A program made the position numbers and the translations under genes. Positions 51,633 to 56,152 of a DNA stretch of 64,000 nucleotides are shown here, one piece after another (position 1 is the stretch's first letter; each line of letters opens with the position of its first letter). The stretch is from Pyrinomonadaceae bacterium (GTDB lineage Bacteria > Acidobacteriota > Blastocatellia > Pyrinomonadales > Pyrinomonadaceae), in the NCBI GenBank assembly GCA_041747575.1, contig JBGTEX010000034.1:1560-65559 (forward strand). The letters are read 5' to 3'. The notes beneath the pieces are model-generated. The model was not told where the DNA came from and searched no databases. It saw only the letters and a program-made list of their open reading frames with translations.

Positions 51633-52574
51633 TCAACTCTCGGAAATCAGTTTAAAAAGCTCGCCTCTGACGGCCTCATCGTCGCCAAAACCGTTCAGCC
51701 AGGTCACAGCCGCCTCACGTCGAAACCATGTCAACTGGCGTTTTGCGTAATTGCGAACATCCTGTTTTGACTGTTCGATCGCGGAATCGAGCTTGCGTTC
51801 GCCGCGTAAATATTCGCAGACCCGTCGATATGCGTGTGCTCCAAGAGCGTTCCCGTTTTCGTCTGTGCCGGCCGCGAGCAAATATTTAACCTCTTCGACA
51901 AGCCCGGACGCGAAATGATTTTCGGTTCTGAGATTTATCTTTTCGTAAAGTTTGTCACGCGGCGGATTAAGGACGAAAAGACGTATTCGCTCAGCAAATT
52001 CGGGCGGCTTAGCCCGGTTTGGCTGTTGCTCCGAAAGCCGCTCGCCGGTCTGAAAATAGACCTCAAGTGCCCGCATAACCCTAACATAGTCGCGGGGCGG
52101 CAATCGCAAAGCCGCGTCAGGGTCAAAACGGCCGAGCATGGCGTACAGGTATTCGGTGCCTCGTTTTTTTTTAATGGAACGAAGCCGTTCGCGCAGCGAT
52201 TTATCAGTTTTAGGGCTGTCGAAAAGTGGCTGCCGGAGAGTTCGAAGGTAAAATCCCGTCCCTCCGACAAAGATCGGGATATGACCGCGGGATTCTATCT
52301 CGGCTATTTTTTCCGCTGCGTCCGCCGCCCAATCAGCCGCTGTGTAATCCACGTTTGGATCGACATAATCGATCAGATGATGCGGTACGCCGCGTTTTTC
52401 TTCGTCGGCCGGTTTTGCGGTGGCGATCTGAATCCCTCTGTAAATCTGAACCGAATCACAATTGATGATCTCGCCGCCCACACGCAAAGCAAGCTCGACT
52501 CCAAGTGCGGTCTTCCCAGACGCGGTCGGGCCGGCGATAGCGTAAATCGGTTTCTCGTTTTTTTTAACACTCAC
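51633..52574 (-). CDS. miaA: tRNA dimethylallyltransferase
   Basis: 313 aa. IAGPTASGKTALGVELA, and DSVQIYRGIQIATAKP. Confidence 0.9.
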   Translation of the reverse strand: MSVKKNEKPIYAIAGPTASGKTALGVELALRVGGEIINCDSVQIYRGIQIATAKPADEEKRGVPHHLIDYVDPNVDYTAADWAADAAEKIAEIESRGHIPIFVGGTGFYLRTLRQPLFDSPKTDKSLRERLRSIKKKRGTEYLYAMLGRFDPDAALRLPPRDYVRVMRALEVYFQTGERLSEQQPNRAKPPEFAERIRLFVLNPPRDKLYEKINLRTENHFASGLVEEVKYLLAAGTDENGNALGAHAYRRVCEYLRGERKLDSAIEQSKQDVRNYAKRQLTWFRREAAVTWLNGFGDDEAVRGELFKLISES

Positions 52575-52831
52575 TTTTCAAGAAGTAGAAATAATACAGA
52601 CAAAACACAGACATTTTGGTATCAGAATGGTGCTGATTAATTTAACAACATCCCTCTGAGCTAATCCCCGGCTAAATATGCTTTTAATAGTCCCGCGGCT
52701 ATTATTAAGACAAGTACGATGATCGAGCCGATGATCTGTTTGCGGGAAAATTTCATCCTGATGGGCCGCCCAGACGTCAACTATCGCAATCACGCCGTTC
52801 GCCGTCCTTCGACCTTAACCAGAATATTGTC

Positions 52832-52839
52832 ACAAGCGA
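52832..52839. repeat. target-site duplication, left copy (ACAAGCGA)
   Basis: An 8-bp direct repeat immediately outside the left terminal inverted repeat, identical to 56145..56152. Confidence 0.8.
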
Positions 52840-52864
52840 GGTAGTGTCTTAAAGTTGTGGTGCT
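52840..52864 (+). repeat. left terminal inverted repeat (IRL)
   Basis: GGTAGTGTCTTAAAGTTGTGGTGCT. It begins GGTAGTG, reminiscent of the GGT(A/G)ATG termini of IS1 (from memory). Confidence 0.85.
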
Positions 52865-52915
52865 GGCCTCGAATAAGTTCTAGCCTTTCGTTTCGGCCTA
52901 TGTTAGCTTTTAACT

Positions 52916-53113
52916 ATGCCATATCGTAAACCCGAATATGACGAAGACGGTGAAGTTTTTTCGATAGCGAAGAGTATTTTTGACGAGATAGTCGAAGAAA
53001 CTGAAAGGGAAGGTTTTGGAGTGATCGTCGCGCCGGAATATTCGGACAACTCTGAAAGTTGCGAATCGGATACCGACCAACGCCCGCCTCTCAATAATTA
53101 CGCAAATCTATAA
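52916..53113 (+). CDS. small, highly acidic hypothetical protein inside the transposon
   Basis: 65 aa: MPYRKPEYDEDGEVFSIAKSIFDEIVEETEREGFGVIVAPEYSDNSESCESDTDQRPPLNNYANL. 17 Asp/Glu against 5 Arg/Lys. It is convergent with the 3' end of the methyltransferase-fusion gene and overlaps it by 16 nt. Confidence 0.4.
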   Translation: MPYRKPEYDEDGEVFSIAKSIFDEIVEETEREGFGVIVAPEYSDNSESCESDTDQRPPLNNYANL

Positions 53114-55677
53114 TCATCGGCGTGAATCATCGCGCGTAAATGAATCTGAAATCCTACCGAATCGGCGATGGCTTTACTTCGCTTATCTCCAAGCGGAAAC
53201 GGTATCTGAAAATGCTGTCTCCACGCGGCTAATTTCAATTCAGGCTGGCTAGCAGTTTGGGCGAGATAATAGATTTGCTTACGGCAATGCTCACTCCGTA
53301 ATGCGTACCACAGTAAATGCCCTTCTTCTTCCGTTCTAGGCTTAATCACGATGAAACCGGACGTGCAGATTGCTCCCGAAAATTCTTCGGGAACCAAAAC
53401 CACCGTTCCGCGCGAGCTGTTGTTGATCGCGACCAAAATATCGCCCGTTTCAACTTGGTACTCGCCTCTTGACGGCAATTCATCGAACCAACCTTCAATA
53501 AAGCTGGTTATAAGACCGTATCGTGTTACATCGCTTATCTCGACATACCGTAACTTTCGGTCGGAATCTCTCAGTTCCTGCTTCGTTTTCGCGCTAATTT
53601 TATTTCGTAAGACAAACGCGGAACCCAGCTTAATTTCAATATCGCTGGCGGCTAAGGCGTCCAACTTCTGCCAGACACCTAACAGTTCCGGCGCATAGAA
53701 AAAGGCGTCCAGCCGTTCGACAGATAGCTTATCCGGTGCGGTCAACCAGACCTGTTCCGGGCATTCGAGATTTTCATCGGGGTCTTGGTTTGCTTTTACC
53801 AACGGAACAAGGACGCCGGTTCGCTTCCATTCGAAATAATAGTTCAATATTTCGGTGAGGTTGTTACGTTCCGGCGTGTCTTTTAGTGCGTTATCATGCC
53901 CGATATTATTACTTATCGACATGAAAACATGGCCTTGCGACTCGGAATCATTTACTTTCTTTCGTAAATGGACAACGGACGTCTTAATATTAGCTTTCGC
54001 CTTAAAAAATGCGTTAAACGGCATCGAATGGACGCCTAAAAGGACAAACTTATTCATTAGCCATTGCCGGATATTAACTTGCCGGGAACCATTCAAAACC
54101 GTATCGTCGATAACGATCAGCATTTCACCGCCCGGAGCTAACAAGTTGTAATACCGTTGCAGAAAAAGCACGTTTGATTTCACCGAAGCCATTCCGTCGG
54201 CAATCGACAATTGCTTTAATATCGCCTTTTCATCTTCATTTTCGGCGCTGTACGTCATGCTAAAAGGCGGGTTGGTCAGAACCAGTTGAAAGGTATTCGG
54301 CTTGATTTTATCGGCGTGATCTAAGACTTCGGCTTGTCGCTCATTGGACATATCGTCAGTTTTTGCCGGAACCGCATCCAATCCGTCACCTTGGAAAATA
54401 TGACTTCCGCCGTCGCCGTGAAGATACATATTTATGCGCGCGATGCGGCTCACCCGCTCGTTTGCTTCGATGCCAAATAAACAAGAATTTTTTATATCCT
54501 CTTCGATTTGTGCCTTTTCGACATTGGTAAATCGGGAATCATTCCGAAGTTTAGCTAACAAATACGCCATTATTTCAATCAAGAATCCGGCGGTTCCGCA
54601 GCAGCCATCAATTGCCCGTGGCGGGTGAGCCGTGTCTTGATATTTATGCAAGGCGATCCGCGTCATAAAATCGACCAAAGGACGCGGCGTAAAGTATTGC
54701 CCTAACTCTCTACCGCGAACCGCCGCATTAAGAAACACCTCAAACATGCGACCGTTCAAGTCTTCATCTATTGAGCTTAGATTTATATGCTCGAACCGTT
54801 TTATCAGTTCTCGCGTTGTCGCGGCACTTAGGTTAAAGGTTTCGTTTTTCTCGAAAATTCGTTTCTTTCGTTGAGAAGGAATATCAGCAGTAATAGCCGT
54901 TTCGAGATCGTCGCGAAGTTTTGTAAACAATACGTCGCGAACTGGATGTTTAGAGGTTTCGGCGCTGGCATCGAGCCAAGCAACCGTGAGCGGTAACTGG
55001 TATGGCTGTAGAATTTGGTACGATTCTTCCCGCCGTTTGTCCTCTCGAATTTTTATAAAAATGAATTTACAAAACTCAAAGAAGGCATCCGCCGGGGCCA
55101 GCTTTTCTTTCTTCCAAATTAATTGATGGCACGTCGAAAAAAGTGTGTTTAACCTGTCAGGGGTGATCGTTTCAAAAGCCAATCCGCCGCCGACCAATTC
55201 AACGCTGGTAACGTGCTTAATGTATGTCCGTAAGGACACGTAAGGCGGCGCCCCGCTCACAAAATCCGACAGTTGAAGGGTGAGCACCGGATTATCGCTA
55301 TCGTGCTTATACAGCGATGTTACGTGCCCATTGGTTATCAGTAGCCACTGAATTTTTTCATTATCACGTTTATCTCGATTGTAACTAAGCGCGTAACTAG
55401 CGGCTTGTCCCCAAGCATTCGGAACGGATTCGTCGGGACGTTTCGTCTCGACTACGACCTTTGCGGTCTTTATTTGACTTAACAGCAAAAAGTCAACTTC
55501 AATTGTTGTTGTTTTTCGACCGGAATTAACGATCAGAGCGGGAAGCTGTCCTTTAGGAATAACTGCGGTCGCGGGATAACCCAGATCGTGAAACAGAGGC
55601 GCGAGTAATCGGGTTTCCACCTCAGCTTCGGAAGCTAAATCTCTACTATCTAGTCCGAAAAGAGTGCTATACGCCAT
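53098..55677 (-). CDS. single-chain restriction-modification enzyme candidate (Type IIG-like): N-terminal HsdR_N/PD-(D/E)xK nuclease + gamma-class N6-adenine DNA methyltransferase + HsdS-like target recognition domain
   Basis: Track ORF 53098..55713; I prefer ATG 55677 (MAYSTLFGLD). Nuclease-like IEVDFLLL...VVVETKRPDE...QAASYAL. Methyltransferase motifs GQYFTPRPLVDFM, AIDGCCGTAGFLIE (motif I) and LVLTNPPFSM (motif IV, NPPF). TRD-like RYVEISDV...GDILVAINNS...ICTSGFIVIKP...LLWYALRSE...QPELK. Confidence 0.75.
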   Translation of the reverse strand: MAYSTLFGLDSRDLASEAEVETRLLAPLFHDLGYPATAVIPKGQLPALIVNSGRKTTTIEVDFLLLSQIKTAKVVVETKRPDESVPNAWGQAASYALSYNRDKRDNEKIQWLLITNGHVTSLYKHDSDNPVLTLQLSDFVSGAPPYVSLRTYIKHVTSVELVGGGLAFETITPDRLNTLFSTCHQLIWKKEKLAPADAFFEFCKFIFIKIREDKRREESYQILQPYQLPLTVAWLDASAETSKHPVRDVLFTKLRDDLETAITADIPSQRKKRIFEKNETFNLSAATTRELIKRFEHINLSSIDEDLNGRMFEVFLNAAVRGRELGQYFTPRPLVDFMTRIALHKYQDTAHPPRAIDGCCGTAGFLIEIMAYLLAKLRNDSRFTNVEKAQIEEDIKNSCLFGIEANERVSRIARINMYLHGDGGSHIFQGDGLDAVPAKTDDMSNERQAEVLDHADKIKPNTFQLVLTNPPFSMTYSAENEDEKAILKQLSIADGMASVKSNVLFLQRYYNLLAPGGEMLIVIDDTVLNGSRQVNIRQWLMNKFVLLGVHSMPFNAFFKAKANIKTSVVHLRKKVNDSESQGHVFMSISNNIGHDNALKDTPERNNLTEILNYYFEWKRTGVLVPLVKANQDPDENLECPEQVWLTAPDKLSVERLDAFFYAPELLGVWQKLDALAASDIEIKLGSAFVLRNKISAKTKQELRDSDRKLRYVEISDVTRYGLITSFIEGWFDELPSRGEYQVETGDILVAINNSSRGTVVLVPEEFSGAICTSGFIVIKPRTEEEGHLLWYALRSEHCRKQIYYLAQTASQPELKLAAWRQHFQIPFPLGDKRSKAIADSVGFQIHLRAMIHADDYRFA

Positions 55678-55787
55678 AGCACAATTTATACAGAGAACCA
55701 AAAGAAAACACAAACCTGAAATTTACTTTTCCTTTGGGGTCTTTGGAAGCTGTCTAGGCTTGTTCCAATTACGGACAAGTCATTAAG

Positions 55788-56135
55788 ATGTACGGAACGC
55801 CTACCCCGAATGACGTTCGTTATTCCCCAGCGGAATGTGTCGGCGCTAAAAAGCGAACAGTTTCCGGTAAGCCGGTTGTAGAAATGATCTCGACTTCACA
55901 CGTTGAAAGACAAAATCTCACGATGCGTATGTCCATGCGTCGTTTCACCCGTTTGACCAATGGTTTTTCGAAAAAGTGGGAAAATCTGAATTACATGCTC
56001 GCGATCTATTTCGTTTACTATAACTTTTGCCGCTCGCACAAAACGTTGCATGATGCGACCCCAGCTATGGCCGCGAACCTAACAAAGACGATTTGGAGCC
56101 TGAAAGACATTTTGGGAGTAGCACCACAACTTTAA
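55788..56135 (+). pseudogene. IS1-family-like DDE transposase, C-terminal 115-aa fragment
   Basis: ...ISTSHVERQNLTMRMSMRRFTRLTNGFSKKWENLNYMLAIYFVYYNFCRSHKTLHDATPAMAA... matches the IS1-type C-terminal pattern (E of DDE in ERxNL, then R..RL...FSKK). The frame is closed by TAG at 55755. No zinc-finger/HTH or first two catalytic Asp regions are present. The stop codon at 56133..56135 lies inside IRR. Confidence 0.6.
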
Positions 56136-56144
56136 GACACTACC
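56120..56144 (-). repeat. right terminal inverted repeat (IRR)
   Basis: AGCACCACAACTTTAAGACACTACC is the exact reverse complement of IRL. Confidence 0.85.
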
Positions 56145-56152
56145 ACAAGCGA
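56145..56152. repeat. target-site duplication, right copy (ACAAGCGA)
   Basis: Immediately outside IRR and identical to 52832..52839. Confidence 0.8.

Follow-up and report, generated by a model that had tools for sequence, protein, structure and literature searches.

The 64-kb stretch of Pyrinomonadaceae DNA analysed here (the window, meaning the whole stretch at its full length) carries, beside the miaA-hfq genes, a 3305-bp element bounded by terminal inverted repeats, which is best explained as a decayed transporter insertion sequence (IS) of the IS1 family with a passenger restriction gene (probability about 0.8). This explanation draws on a complete insertion footprint, on remnants of two IS genes inside the element, and on a colinear relative, locus L202, where a restriction gene of the same family lies beside a full transposase. 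Intact relatives comprise, in this order, a left repeat, a small conserved open reading frame (ORF), a cargo slot, an IS1 transposase and a right repeat. Compared with this plan, the copy in the window is short of about 0.5 kb, in which the promoter region of the transposase and its first ~140-190 codons (Zn ribbon, helix-turn-helix (HTH) and most of the DDE core) were located, and the 3' half of the small ORF is missing as well. The parts recognised in the window are the following:

52832..52839, no strand: left target-site duplication, 8 bp, ACAAGCGA, the same letters as 56145-56152, read from the sequence
52840..52864, plus strand: left terminal inverted repeat (IRL), GGTAGTGTCTTAAAGTTGTGGTGCT, beginning GGTAGTG
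52916..53113, plus strand: chimeric small-ORF remnant, 65 aa, pI 4.05, homologous to its relatives only over the first ~32 codons (to ~53011)
53098..55677, minus strand: cargo, an 859-aa single-chain restriction-modification enzyme with a predicted N-terminal PD-(D/E)xK nuclease, a gamma-class N6-adenine methyltransferase and one specificity domain
55678..55733, no strand: spacer with the putative deletion junction, from the start of the restriction gene to the transposase remnant, delimited by colinear DNA alignment with L202
55734..56135, plus strand: C-terminal remnant of an IS1-family transposase, with tblastn homology from ~55734 and an in-frame stop at 55755-55757
55788-56135, plus strand: 115-aa open frame of the transposase remnant, from the ATG at 55788 to the TAA at 56133-56135 within the right repeat
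56120..56144, minus strand: right terminal inverted repeat (IRR), exact reverse complement of GGTAGTGTCTTAAAGTTGTGGTGCT, holding the stop codon of the transposase remnant
56145..56152, no strand: right target-site duplication, ACAAGCGA, read from the sequence

Insertion footprint

The perfect 25-bp repeats and the 8-bp duplication had already been claimed in an earlier note made from the letters of this DNA, and both were confirmed, since the arms, which enclose 3255 nt, agree at 25 of 25 nt (100% complementarity) and the same 8 bp abut them on both outer sides. Matches to GGTAGTGTCTTAAAGTTGTGGTGCT with up to three mismatches number two in the window, namely IRL and IRR, and none was obtained in 100 dinucleotide-preserving shuffles, the chance of the ACAAGCGA duplication at fixed positions being 4^-8. 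A 9-bp duplication (CACAAGCGA) was formally possible and was rejected because the repeats would become asymmetric and the repeat family is consistently associated with 8 bp, exact 8-bp duplications being present in 33 other elements of this family. The start codon of miaA, at 52574, is 266 bp from the left end of the element, close to the ~260 bp estimated before. The G+C content amounts to 45.8% in the element, 52.9% in miaA and 50.1% on average in the window (standard deviation 2.0% for windows of equal size), in keeping with the reported AT-richness relative to miaA. The complete structure is spanned, at 100% identity over 7625 bp, by an independent Logan assembly of run SRR28170472 (L001), based in all probability on the reads that underlie the window too. 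The event recorded by this footprint would be an insertion upstream of miaA by IS1-type transposition, creating the 8-bp duplication.

Remnants of the IS genes

The IS1-type nature of the shell, as first proposed, is supported by the transposase stub, which tblastn aligns over 120 aa, at 78% identity, with residues 198-317 in the transposase of locus L055, a full-length protein that passes the IS1 models NF033558 and PF03400. Identity to the L202 transposase is 60-64% (60% by tblastn, residues 144-269). Taken by itself, the stub scores 21.4 bits with the Pfam model DDE_Tnp_IS1 (PF03400), under the cut-off of 24.1, and more than 8000 homologues were found for it, some of them annotated as IS1 family transposase, so that the transposase homology proposed for it is borne out. 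What is retained in the window corresponds to residues ~186-325 in L055 numbering, or about the last 130 codons, and what is missing comprises the part that matches NF033558 (residues 3-192), with the Zn ribbon and the HTH as well as the greater part of the catalytic core. The 115-codon frame contains no frameshift and its stop codon falls inside IRR, as described before, an arrangement also seen in the full-length transposases of L047 and L037; a 25-mer identical to the window repeat occurs in L111 as well. Because its transposase is reduced to the C-terminus, the element is, judging from the sequence, unable to transpose by itself, in agreement with the non-autonomous status that it had been given. 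The closest relatives of the stub (L002-L006, e.g. L002:4001-4735, and L007:1326-2234) are N-terminally truncated transposase remnants too, with a small extra ORF between the remnant and the right repeat; in L002-L006 the remnant adjoins a phage terminase small-subunit gene.

The small acidic ORF of the earlier description does exist, but the status of cargo implied for it did not hold, its first ~32 codons being those of a small IS ORF. Its motif SIAKSIFDEIVEETERE aligns with the IRL-adjacent small ORFs of L055, L018, L030, L052, L136 and L202. When intact, these small ORFs are acidic in their N-terminal part (consensus ...DRDEITVAxSIFDEIVE...) and end in a basic tail (RGGxARAxKL...RW); the tail was searched for in the window element and is absent in all three frames, and the profile search returned no family match for the 65-aa ORF. 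Because the shared codons are followed by divergence and by loss of the tail, the acidic ORF is a truncated small IS gene fused to unrelated sequence, and not as cargo. Its interpretation as an anti-restriction protein or DNA mimic was rejected for the same reason, namely that it is a truncated IS gene.

An autonomous counterpart of the element

L202 is a 67.8-kb Logan contig around the restriction homologue P0130, with one element of the kind in question:

L202, 3968-7861: element with 22-nt inverted repeats GGTAGTGGGTCAGTTTGAAATT and an exact 8-bp duplication CATGCGGG

It contains an 81-aa small ORF with a basic tail and an opposite-strand 855-aa restriction gene 69% identical to that of the window; a spacer of 145 bp separates the latter from a 292-aa IS1 transposase (PF03400, 35.3 bits), the stop codon of which adjoins the repeat. 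When L202 is flipped, its gene order and orientation equal those of the window element, and the two are colinear, with 66-73% DNA identity over the restriction gene and the transposase C-terminus. The distance between the start of the restriction gene and the transposase C-terminus is 150 bp in the window against 671 bp in L202 (~520 bp shorter), and the L202 interval equivalent to the spacer at 55678..55733 consists of 145 bp plus about 143 transposase codons. The simplest history suggested by this alignment is that a transporter IS with a restriction gene lost about 0.5 kb, corresponding to the 5' part of the transposase and the region upstream of it. The earlier note had taken the restriction gene to stand in place of a transposase, a view that has to be abandoned, as cargo and transposase coexist in L202 and also in L055 and L018. 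Sibling copies of the window element did not appear in protein searches made with the stub and the restriction protein. The transposases of the L202 clade lack the Zn ribbon.

The restriction-modification cargo

The 859-aa opposite-strand fusion of nuclease, methyltransferase and target recognition domain (TRD), also reported before, was recovered with its methyltransferase and specificity domains matched, the match to a nuclease remaining below the Pfam cut-off (HSDR_N, 19.7 bits versus 25.1); many homologues have precomputed PF04313 or PF13588 matches. The methyltransferase domain matches PF02384 (N6_Mtase) with 118.3 bits against a cut-off of 20.4 and PF07669 (Eco57I) with 38.4 against 25.3. 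In the specificity domain, the S-subunit model NF047740 covers residues 662-853 (8e-6), and residues 707-803 match the solved S subunits 5ybb_D and 3okg_A at 1.5e-5. The best solved-structure match by sequence is RM.BsaXI (8w0p, 2e-23, residues 176-581), and the PADLOC models REase_MTase_IIG match the protein at 1e-24. Membership in MADS systems, through a MAD2 methyltransferase, was considered and rejected, the score with NF047738 being 163.9 bits versus a cut-off of 720 and the element containing no MADS partner genes.

In an alignment of ten sequences (A1), composed of the window segment 53098-55713 on the minus strand and nine homologues, the window protein keeps the invariant columns D74, E89 and K91 of the D...ExK nuclease motif and, in the methyltransferase, those of motif I (G373/T374/G376/F377) and of the NPPF motif (N481-F484). 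The same alignment set the start of the gene at the ATG at 55677. Because the ORF is full length and all invariant family columns are kept, the restriction gene looks intact. An AlphaFold2 model built from the 10-sequence alignment was of too low a quality for the nuclease fold to be confirmed, with a mean pLDDT of 59, values of 50-67 in the nuclease domain and below 40 in the linker.

By means of its NPPF methyltransferase and its own specificity domain, the enzyme would methylate its recognition sites in host DNA, and its predicted N-terminal PD-(D/E)xK nuclease would cut unmodified incoming DNA, amounting to phage defence. Loss of the window element may in addition be penalised by post-segregational killing.

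Full-length homologues of 855-859 aa, 60-71% identical, are found in very different bacteria, the closest being 71% identical (78% for a fragment). The specificity domains of such restriction enzymes usually vary; in this ~855-aa family the 60-71% identity across distant phyla extends through the C-terminal specificity domain. No IS1 repeat, stub or small ORF is present around the closest homologues, which lie on short contigs (L008, L010 and L074), and in plasmids nothing nearer was found than "N-6 DNA methylase" genes of 29-31% identity. The contexts of the family are diverse: the homologue adjoins a tyrosine integrase on a viral contig (L200), has a further methylase gene on one side and an HsdR-like gene on the other in a type I-like cluster (L203), and adjoins PPK2 in L074. 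In L009:4390-8583 a homologue of 70% identity is the passenger of a 4.2-kb IS5-family-like transporter IS with imperfect 30-nt repeats starting GGCTTTG, a 9-bp duplication (CAATTTAAT) and a 414-aa transposase that scores 113 bits with NF033579, under the cut-off of 140. No partner gene recurs in any context examined, which fits a self-sufficient single-gene system.

Elements with window-type ends

Genomes (one per species) were scanned with the degenerate end GGTAGTGTCYTAANNTTGTGGTG. The genome scan returned 62 stretches, nearly all from Pyrinomonadaceae, Chloracidobacterium and other metagenome-assembled genomes (MAGs) of Acidobacteriota, and the corresponding metagenome scan at least 120. 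The taxonomy of these genome hits, together with the nearest MiaA homologues, makes a member of Pyrinomonadaceae the most likely host of the window. When plus- and minus-strand ends were paired on the basis of 8-bp flanks agreeing at 7/8 or 8/8, 45 other repeat pairs with matching flanks were obtained, 33 of them exact, which fall into four classes:

MITEs (miniature transposable elements with inverted repeats): 12 elements, 140-252 bp
Cargo ORFs with no transposase similarity: 27 elements
Transposase C-terminal remnant only, beside the right repeat: 4 elements, remnants starting at residues 154, 247, 267 and 284
Full transposase: 2 elements, L018 (3544 bp) and L055 (3487 bp)

Among the passengers of the transposase-less elements are secreted proteins, lipoproteins, a histidine kinase, B12-binding proteins, an AraC regulator, a vWA protein and DUF7668. 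One 161-bp MITE occurs at four sites (L126, L138, L141 and L143), 94-97% identical and with different duplications, and one cassette occupies two sites, also with different duplications (L108 and L192). Because these copies lie at four and at two sites with differing duplications, transposase-less members of the window repeat family evidently do move.

The autonomous members L055 and L018 have the duplications CACTTTTC and GTCTGAGA, respectively, and share a plan (L018 when flipped) of repeat, small ORF of 72-77 aa, opposite-strand cargo, transposase, further small ORFs and repeat. Their DNA is 71-76% identical over the small ORF and over the transposase with ~75 bp upstream of it, and the cargo is unrelated, being a Schlafen/AlbA_2 and HATPase_c_4 protein in L055 and an AAA/STAND-like ATPase in L018. 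With the NCBIfam IS1 equivalog NF033558 (cut-off 100), L055 scores 101.9 bits, L047 103.5 and L018 97.2, just under the threshold; the L055 transposase also reaches 27.9 bits with PF03400 (cut-off 24.1), and those of L055 and L047 carry the N-terminal IS1/IS1595 Zn-binding domain (NF050000). In the full-length relatives the transposase is encoded by one continuous ORF of 325-347 aa, with no insA/insB' arrangement, and to judge by this organisation the relatives fit the single-ORF IS1 subgroup and not canonical IS1.

Eleven transposase-less cassettes with unrelated cargo (L081, e.g. L081:9244-9442, L092, L108, L120, L140, L156, L175, L185, L186, L189 and L192) share an end module of ~190 bp that is 93-97% identical and usually lies 3' of the cargo ORF; part of this module is a terminator-like hairpin, CAAAAACGCTCGTTTTTG, that recurs near cassette ends. 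Two 831-bp cassettes, 100% identical and 5 kb apart, are found at L185:440-1270 and L185:5482-6312, and because all four flanks are identical (GAATTTTG), this pair points to duplication of a segment or to an artefact of assembly and less to two separate transpositions. Two right repeats stand in tandem 1 bp apart at L034:4977-5027, and two ends face each other head to head, 6 bp apart, at L047:2173-2224, which hints at insertion beside or into existing ends.

L202-type elements on viral contigs

The L202-type end, GGTAGTGGGTCAGTTTGAA, was found in 109 viral-contig stretches of IMG/VR (L205-L313), in which there are many elements of 1-4.8 kb with 8-bp duplications. A transposase is present at 25 of these loci, and 13 have the small ORF in addition to the transposase, the slot that separates the two being occupied. 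The slot contents listed below come from a small, unsystematic sample:

L225 (1262-6058): HSDR_N_2 and N6_Mtase protein of 700 aa, with an HsdS-like protein of 473 aa; duplication 8/8
L209 (1865-4890): RosmerTA RmrA-like XRE-M78 protein, 8e-65
L289 (324-3312) and L260: PD-Lambda-2_B-like XRE-M78 proteins with a ~170-aa partner, 1e-41 to 6e-46
L211 and L286: same pair as in L289 and L260, judged by similarity
L308 (1657-5247): HipA-like kinase with DUF3037
L257 and L299: P63C proteins

This sample is rich in defence and toxin-antitoxin-type genes. Decayed cargo-bearing derivatives with intact duplications occur among the viral contigs too, one example from the L202 clade being L226, which has an 8/8 duplication, a defence-like cargo pair and transposase residues 1-71 only. 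The P63C proteins contain near the N-terminus a basic motif, GxKARAxALSPxxRKEIAxKAAxARWG (residues ~10-37 in L257:1130-2092 and ~65-92 in the 371-aa protein of L299), that also forms the tail of the small IS ORF, as would be expected from a fusion of this ORF with the cargo. The window-type repeat itself is absent from the viral contigs searched, in which the L055 transposase has nothing nearer than relatives of 43-49% identity.

Origin of the window element

The decay of a transporter IS, as favoured here, may have taken place before the insertion, with the truncated element being mobilised in trans by a related transposase, or after it, as decay in place. A number of observations weigh against this explanation. 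The two lesions, in the 5' part of the transposase and in the 3' half of the small ORF, call for two events or for a single complex one. Public data contain no second copy of the element, and among 5.8 billion proteins the restriction protein and the stub were each encountered on only 2 contigs, which come from one sample; homologues of the stub come no closer than 81% identity over about 90% of its length, with shorter fragments reaching 91%. The empty site (expected TATTGTCACAAGCGAAACGCGGTTG) was not found either: the exact MiaA protein of the window occurs in the source sample alone, and its nearest homologues, 76-81% identical, come from genomes syntenic on the miaA-hfq-tmk-holB side and not on the side upstream of miaA. 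The consensus scan showed no sigma-70-like promoter upstream of the restriction gene. Finally, L202 is from a different IS1 clade. Because the stub is closer to L055 (78% identity) than to L202 (64%) and the repeats diverge after GGTAGTG, L202 would be a cousin of the window element and not its parent. An autonomous restriction-carrying member of the window's own clade (repeats GGTAGTGTCYTAA...) was not seen, and the window and L202 clades may have captured the restriction gene independently.

Somewhat short of even odds is the possibility that the element moved in its present form, as a mobile insertion cassette whose transposase was already truncated and for which a related IS1 transposase elsewhere in the genome provided help in trans, which is the version of the earlier note. 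The perfect repeats, the undecayed duplication and the 115-codon stub without frameshift are in line with it, as are the movement of transposase-less elements with window-type ends (the 161-bp MITE and the L108/L192 cassette), the finding of cargo without transposase in 27 of the 45 bounded elements, and the makeup of L226. However, all these features would be equally expected from a recent deletion in place, a second copy of the cassette was found nowhere, and the window contains no helper transposase or further repeat. Given that transposase-less MITEs and cassettes with these ends are present at several sites, mobilisation of the window copy in trans is plausible.

Capture in place, in which illegitimate or homologous recombination would have replaced the interior of a plain or differently loaded IS1 element upstream of miaA, beginning midway through the small ORF and ending at about transposase residue 190, by a restriction gene that had never moved within this shell, is considered unlikely. 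It would account for the position of both borders of the restriction segment within IS-derived genes, and the unrelated cargo of the otherwise similar L055 and L018 implies that interiors are exchanged somehow; the restriction family, moreover, is also found outside IS shells (L200, L203 and L074). Nevertheless, L202, an element colinear with that of the window, presents the same order and orientation, and it has a duplication of its own and a transposase that is complete. Arrival of the gene inside the shell is the more economical assumption, and neither repeats nor microhomology were seen where the restriction segment begins and ends. It is very improbable that the element is no transposition product at all, whether through chance inverted repeats or through a mis-assembly joining two IS ends around an unrelated gene. 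The window does come from a metagenome-assembled contig, and repeats of this family are numerous in related genomes and able to break or mis-join assemblies, but chance repeats are contradicted by the shuffles (0/100), an exact 8-bp duplication would not result from mis-joining, a second assembler yields the identical 7.6-kb structure, and colinearity of the interior extends to L202, where the element is an independent one.

Setting of the insertion

One further feature overlaps the left end of the element:

52827..52855, plus strand: promoter-like site over the left junction, with a -35 TTGTCA in the flank and a -10 TAAAGT in IRL, reading into the element

This site has 9/12 matches in the consensus scan and the regional count of such sites is not above the shuffle expectation, so it is only a lead. 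Integration targeted to a tRNA gene was ruled out, Rfam (at gathering thresholds) and ARAGORN having found no RNA genes in the 48-60 kb region, and a composite transposon of two full ISs was rejected, the element having no internal repeats and being colinear with the single-unit L202. In a related genome with an 81%-identical MiaA (L075-L077:293-3398), an IS1595-family transposase gene is located ~3 kb upstream of miaA, flanked by an R.HinP1I-like endonuclease gene and by Bro-N and N6_N4 methylase genes, representing a second association of restriction genes with an IS close to the miaA housekeeping cluster.

Relation to known elements

By the hallmarks familiar from ISfinder, IS1 elements have repeats of about 20-25 bp beginning GGnnnTG and an 8-9 bp target duplication, and in the canonical subgroup the insA/insB' pair is joined by programmed -1 frameshifting. 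The elements described here resemble this family in the GGTAGTG ends of the window and L202 clades, in the 8-bp duplication and in the match of the relatives' transposases to IS1 models. They differ from it in that the window copy is devoid of the first ~140-190 transposase codons and in that the relatives reach 3.5-4.8 kb, against about 0.8 kb, owing to the small extra ORF and the passenger genes.

The term transporter IS (tIS) designates IS copies that include passenger genes unrelated to transposition (PMC3129680, PMC9330008). L055, L018, L202, L225 and others, each with a single IS transposase and repeats around passengers, are an exact fit to it, whereas the window copy has no working transposase; the group is also distinguished by the fixed slot between small ORF and transposase, with mostly defence- or toxin-antitoxin-like cargo. 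Mobile insertion cassettes (MICs) and MITEs, in turn, are transposase-less derivatives activated by a cognate transposase (PMC3129680). The window element is like a MIC in having IS repeats, a target duplication, a passenger gene and no functional transposase, but it keeps the transposase C-terminus and the small-ORF N-terminus, being therefore intermediate between a transporter IS and a cassette, and it is known from one copy.

Restriction units that lack a transposase, for which a DNA-transposon-like movement was proposed, were described by Furuta, Abe and Kobayashi in 2010 (PMC2853133). They include a Neisseria gonorrhoeae restriction gene with 26-bp inverted and 8-bp direct repeats (Type IIG in Table 3 of that paper and Type II in the legend of its Figure 11b) and, in Xanthomonas oryzae, a Type II system that has repeats of 65 bp and a duplication of 8 bp. 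A compact restriction unit between short inverted repeats with an 8-bp duplication is common to those cases and to the window; here, in contrast, the parent IS family is known from internal remnants and from autonomous relatives with the same gene family, whereas empty sites were available there and none for the window element. A restriction unit with 16-bp terminal direct repeats identical to part of insertion sequences is also on record (PMC2875022). As for the enzyme, RM.BsaXI (Type IIB/IIG, 8w0p) combines a nuclease and a gamma-class N6-adenine methyltransferase in one chain, as is predicted for the window protein, but it has a separate S subunit, in place of which the window protein has one fused specificity domain (residues ~660-859).

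The window element thus belongs to kinds that have already been named, namely the transporter IS, the mobile insertion cassette and, since 2010, transposon-like restriction units, and the earlier judgement that it is unusual could not be upheld, since transposase-less cassettes with these ends are common and restriction genes in such repeats had been described (PMC2853133). What appears to be less described is the wider pattern of end family, slot plan and slot cargo. No account of this pattern for IS1, and nothing specific on IS1 elements with defence cargo, was found in the literature searched, the coverage of which was incomplete, and a search for "ISMhu11" returned no paper.

Significance

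A decayed transporter IS with a restriction gene accounts for the foreign 3.3-kb block beside miaA-hfq, through which the host has probably gained an active one-gene restriction system. The riding of the ~855-aa restriction family on at least two IS families, IS1 and IS5-like, offers a simple means by which it may have spread across phyla, where its identity is 60-71%. More generally, cargo is a routine feature of IS1-family elements, both in soil Acidobacteriota and on viral contigs, and much of this cargo is related to defence; the elements decay into cassettes that keep usable ends. The slot cargo overall includes single-chain and two-gene restriction-modification systems, RosmerTA-like and PD-Lambda-2-like XRE-M78 proteins, a HipA-like kinase, a Schlafen/ATPase protein and a STAND-like ATPase. 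It is tentatively suggested, at a confidence below one half, that widespread IS1 transporter ISs exchange compact anti-phage and toxin-antitoxin-type systems through a fixed slot between the conserved small ORF and the transposase. In this view one clade, with the L202-type end, is abundant on viral contigs, and another, in Pyrinomonadaceae, gives rise to dozens of single-gene cassettes mobilised in trans. If this is true, ISs of about 3-5 kb would shuttle defence genes from bacterial to phage genomes and back, on a smaller scale than Tn7-like elements and integrons. The elements are also a tractable system for studying how very small transposons gain and swap passenger genes.

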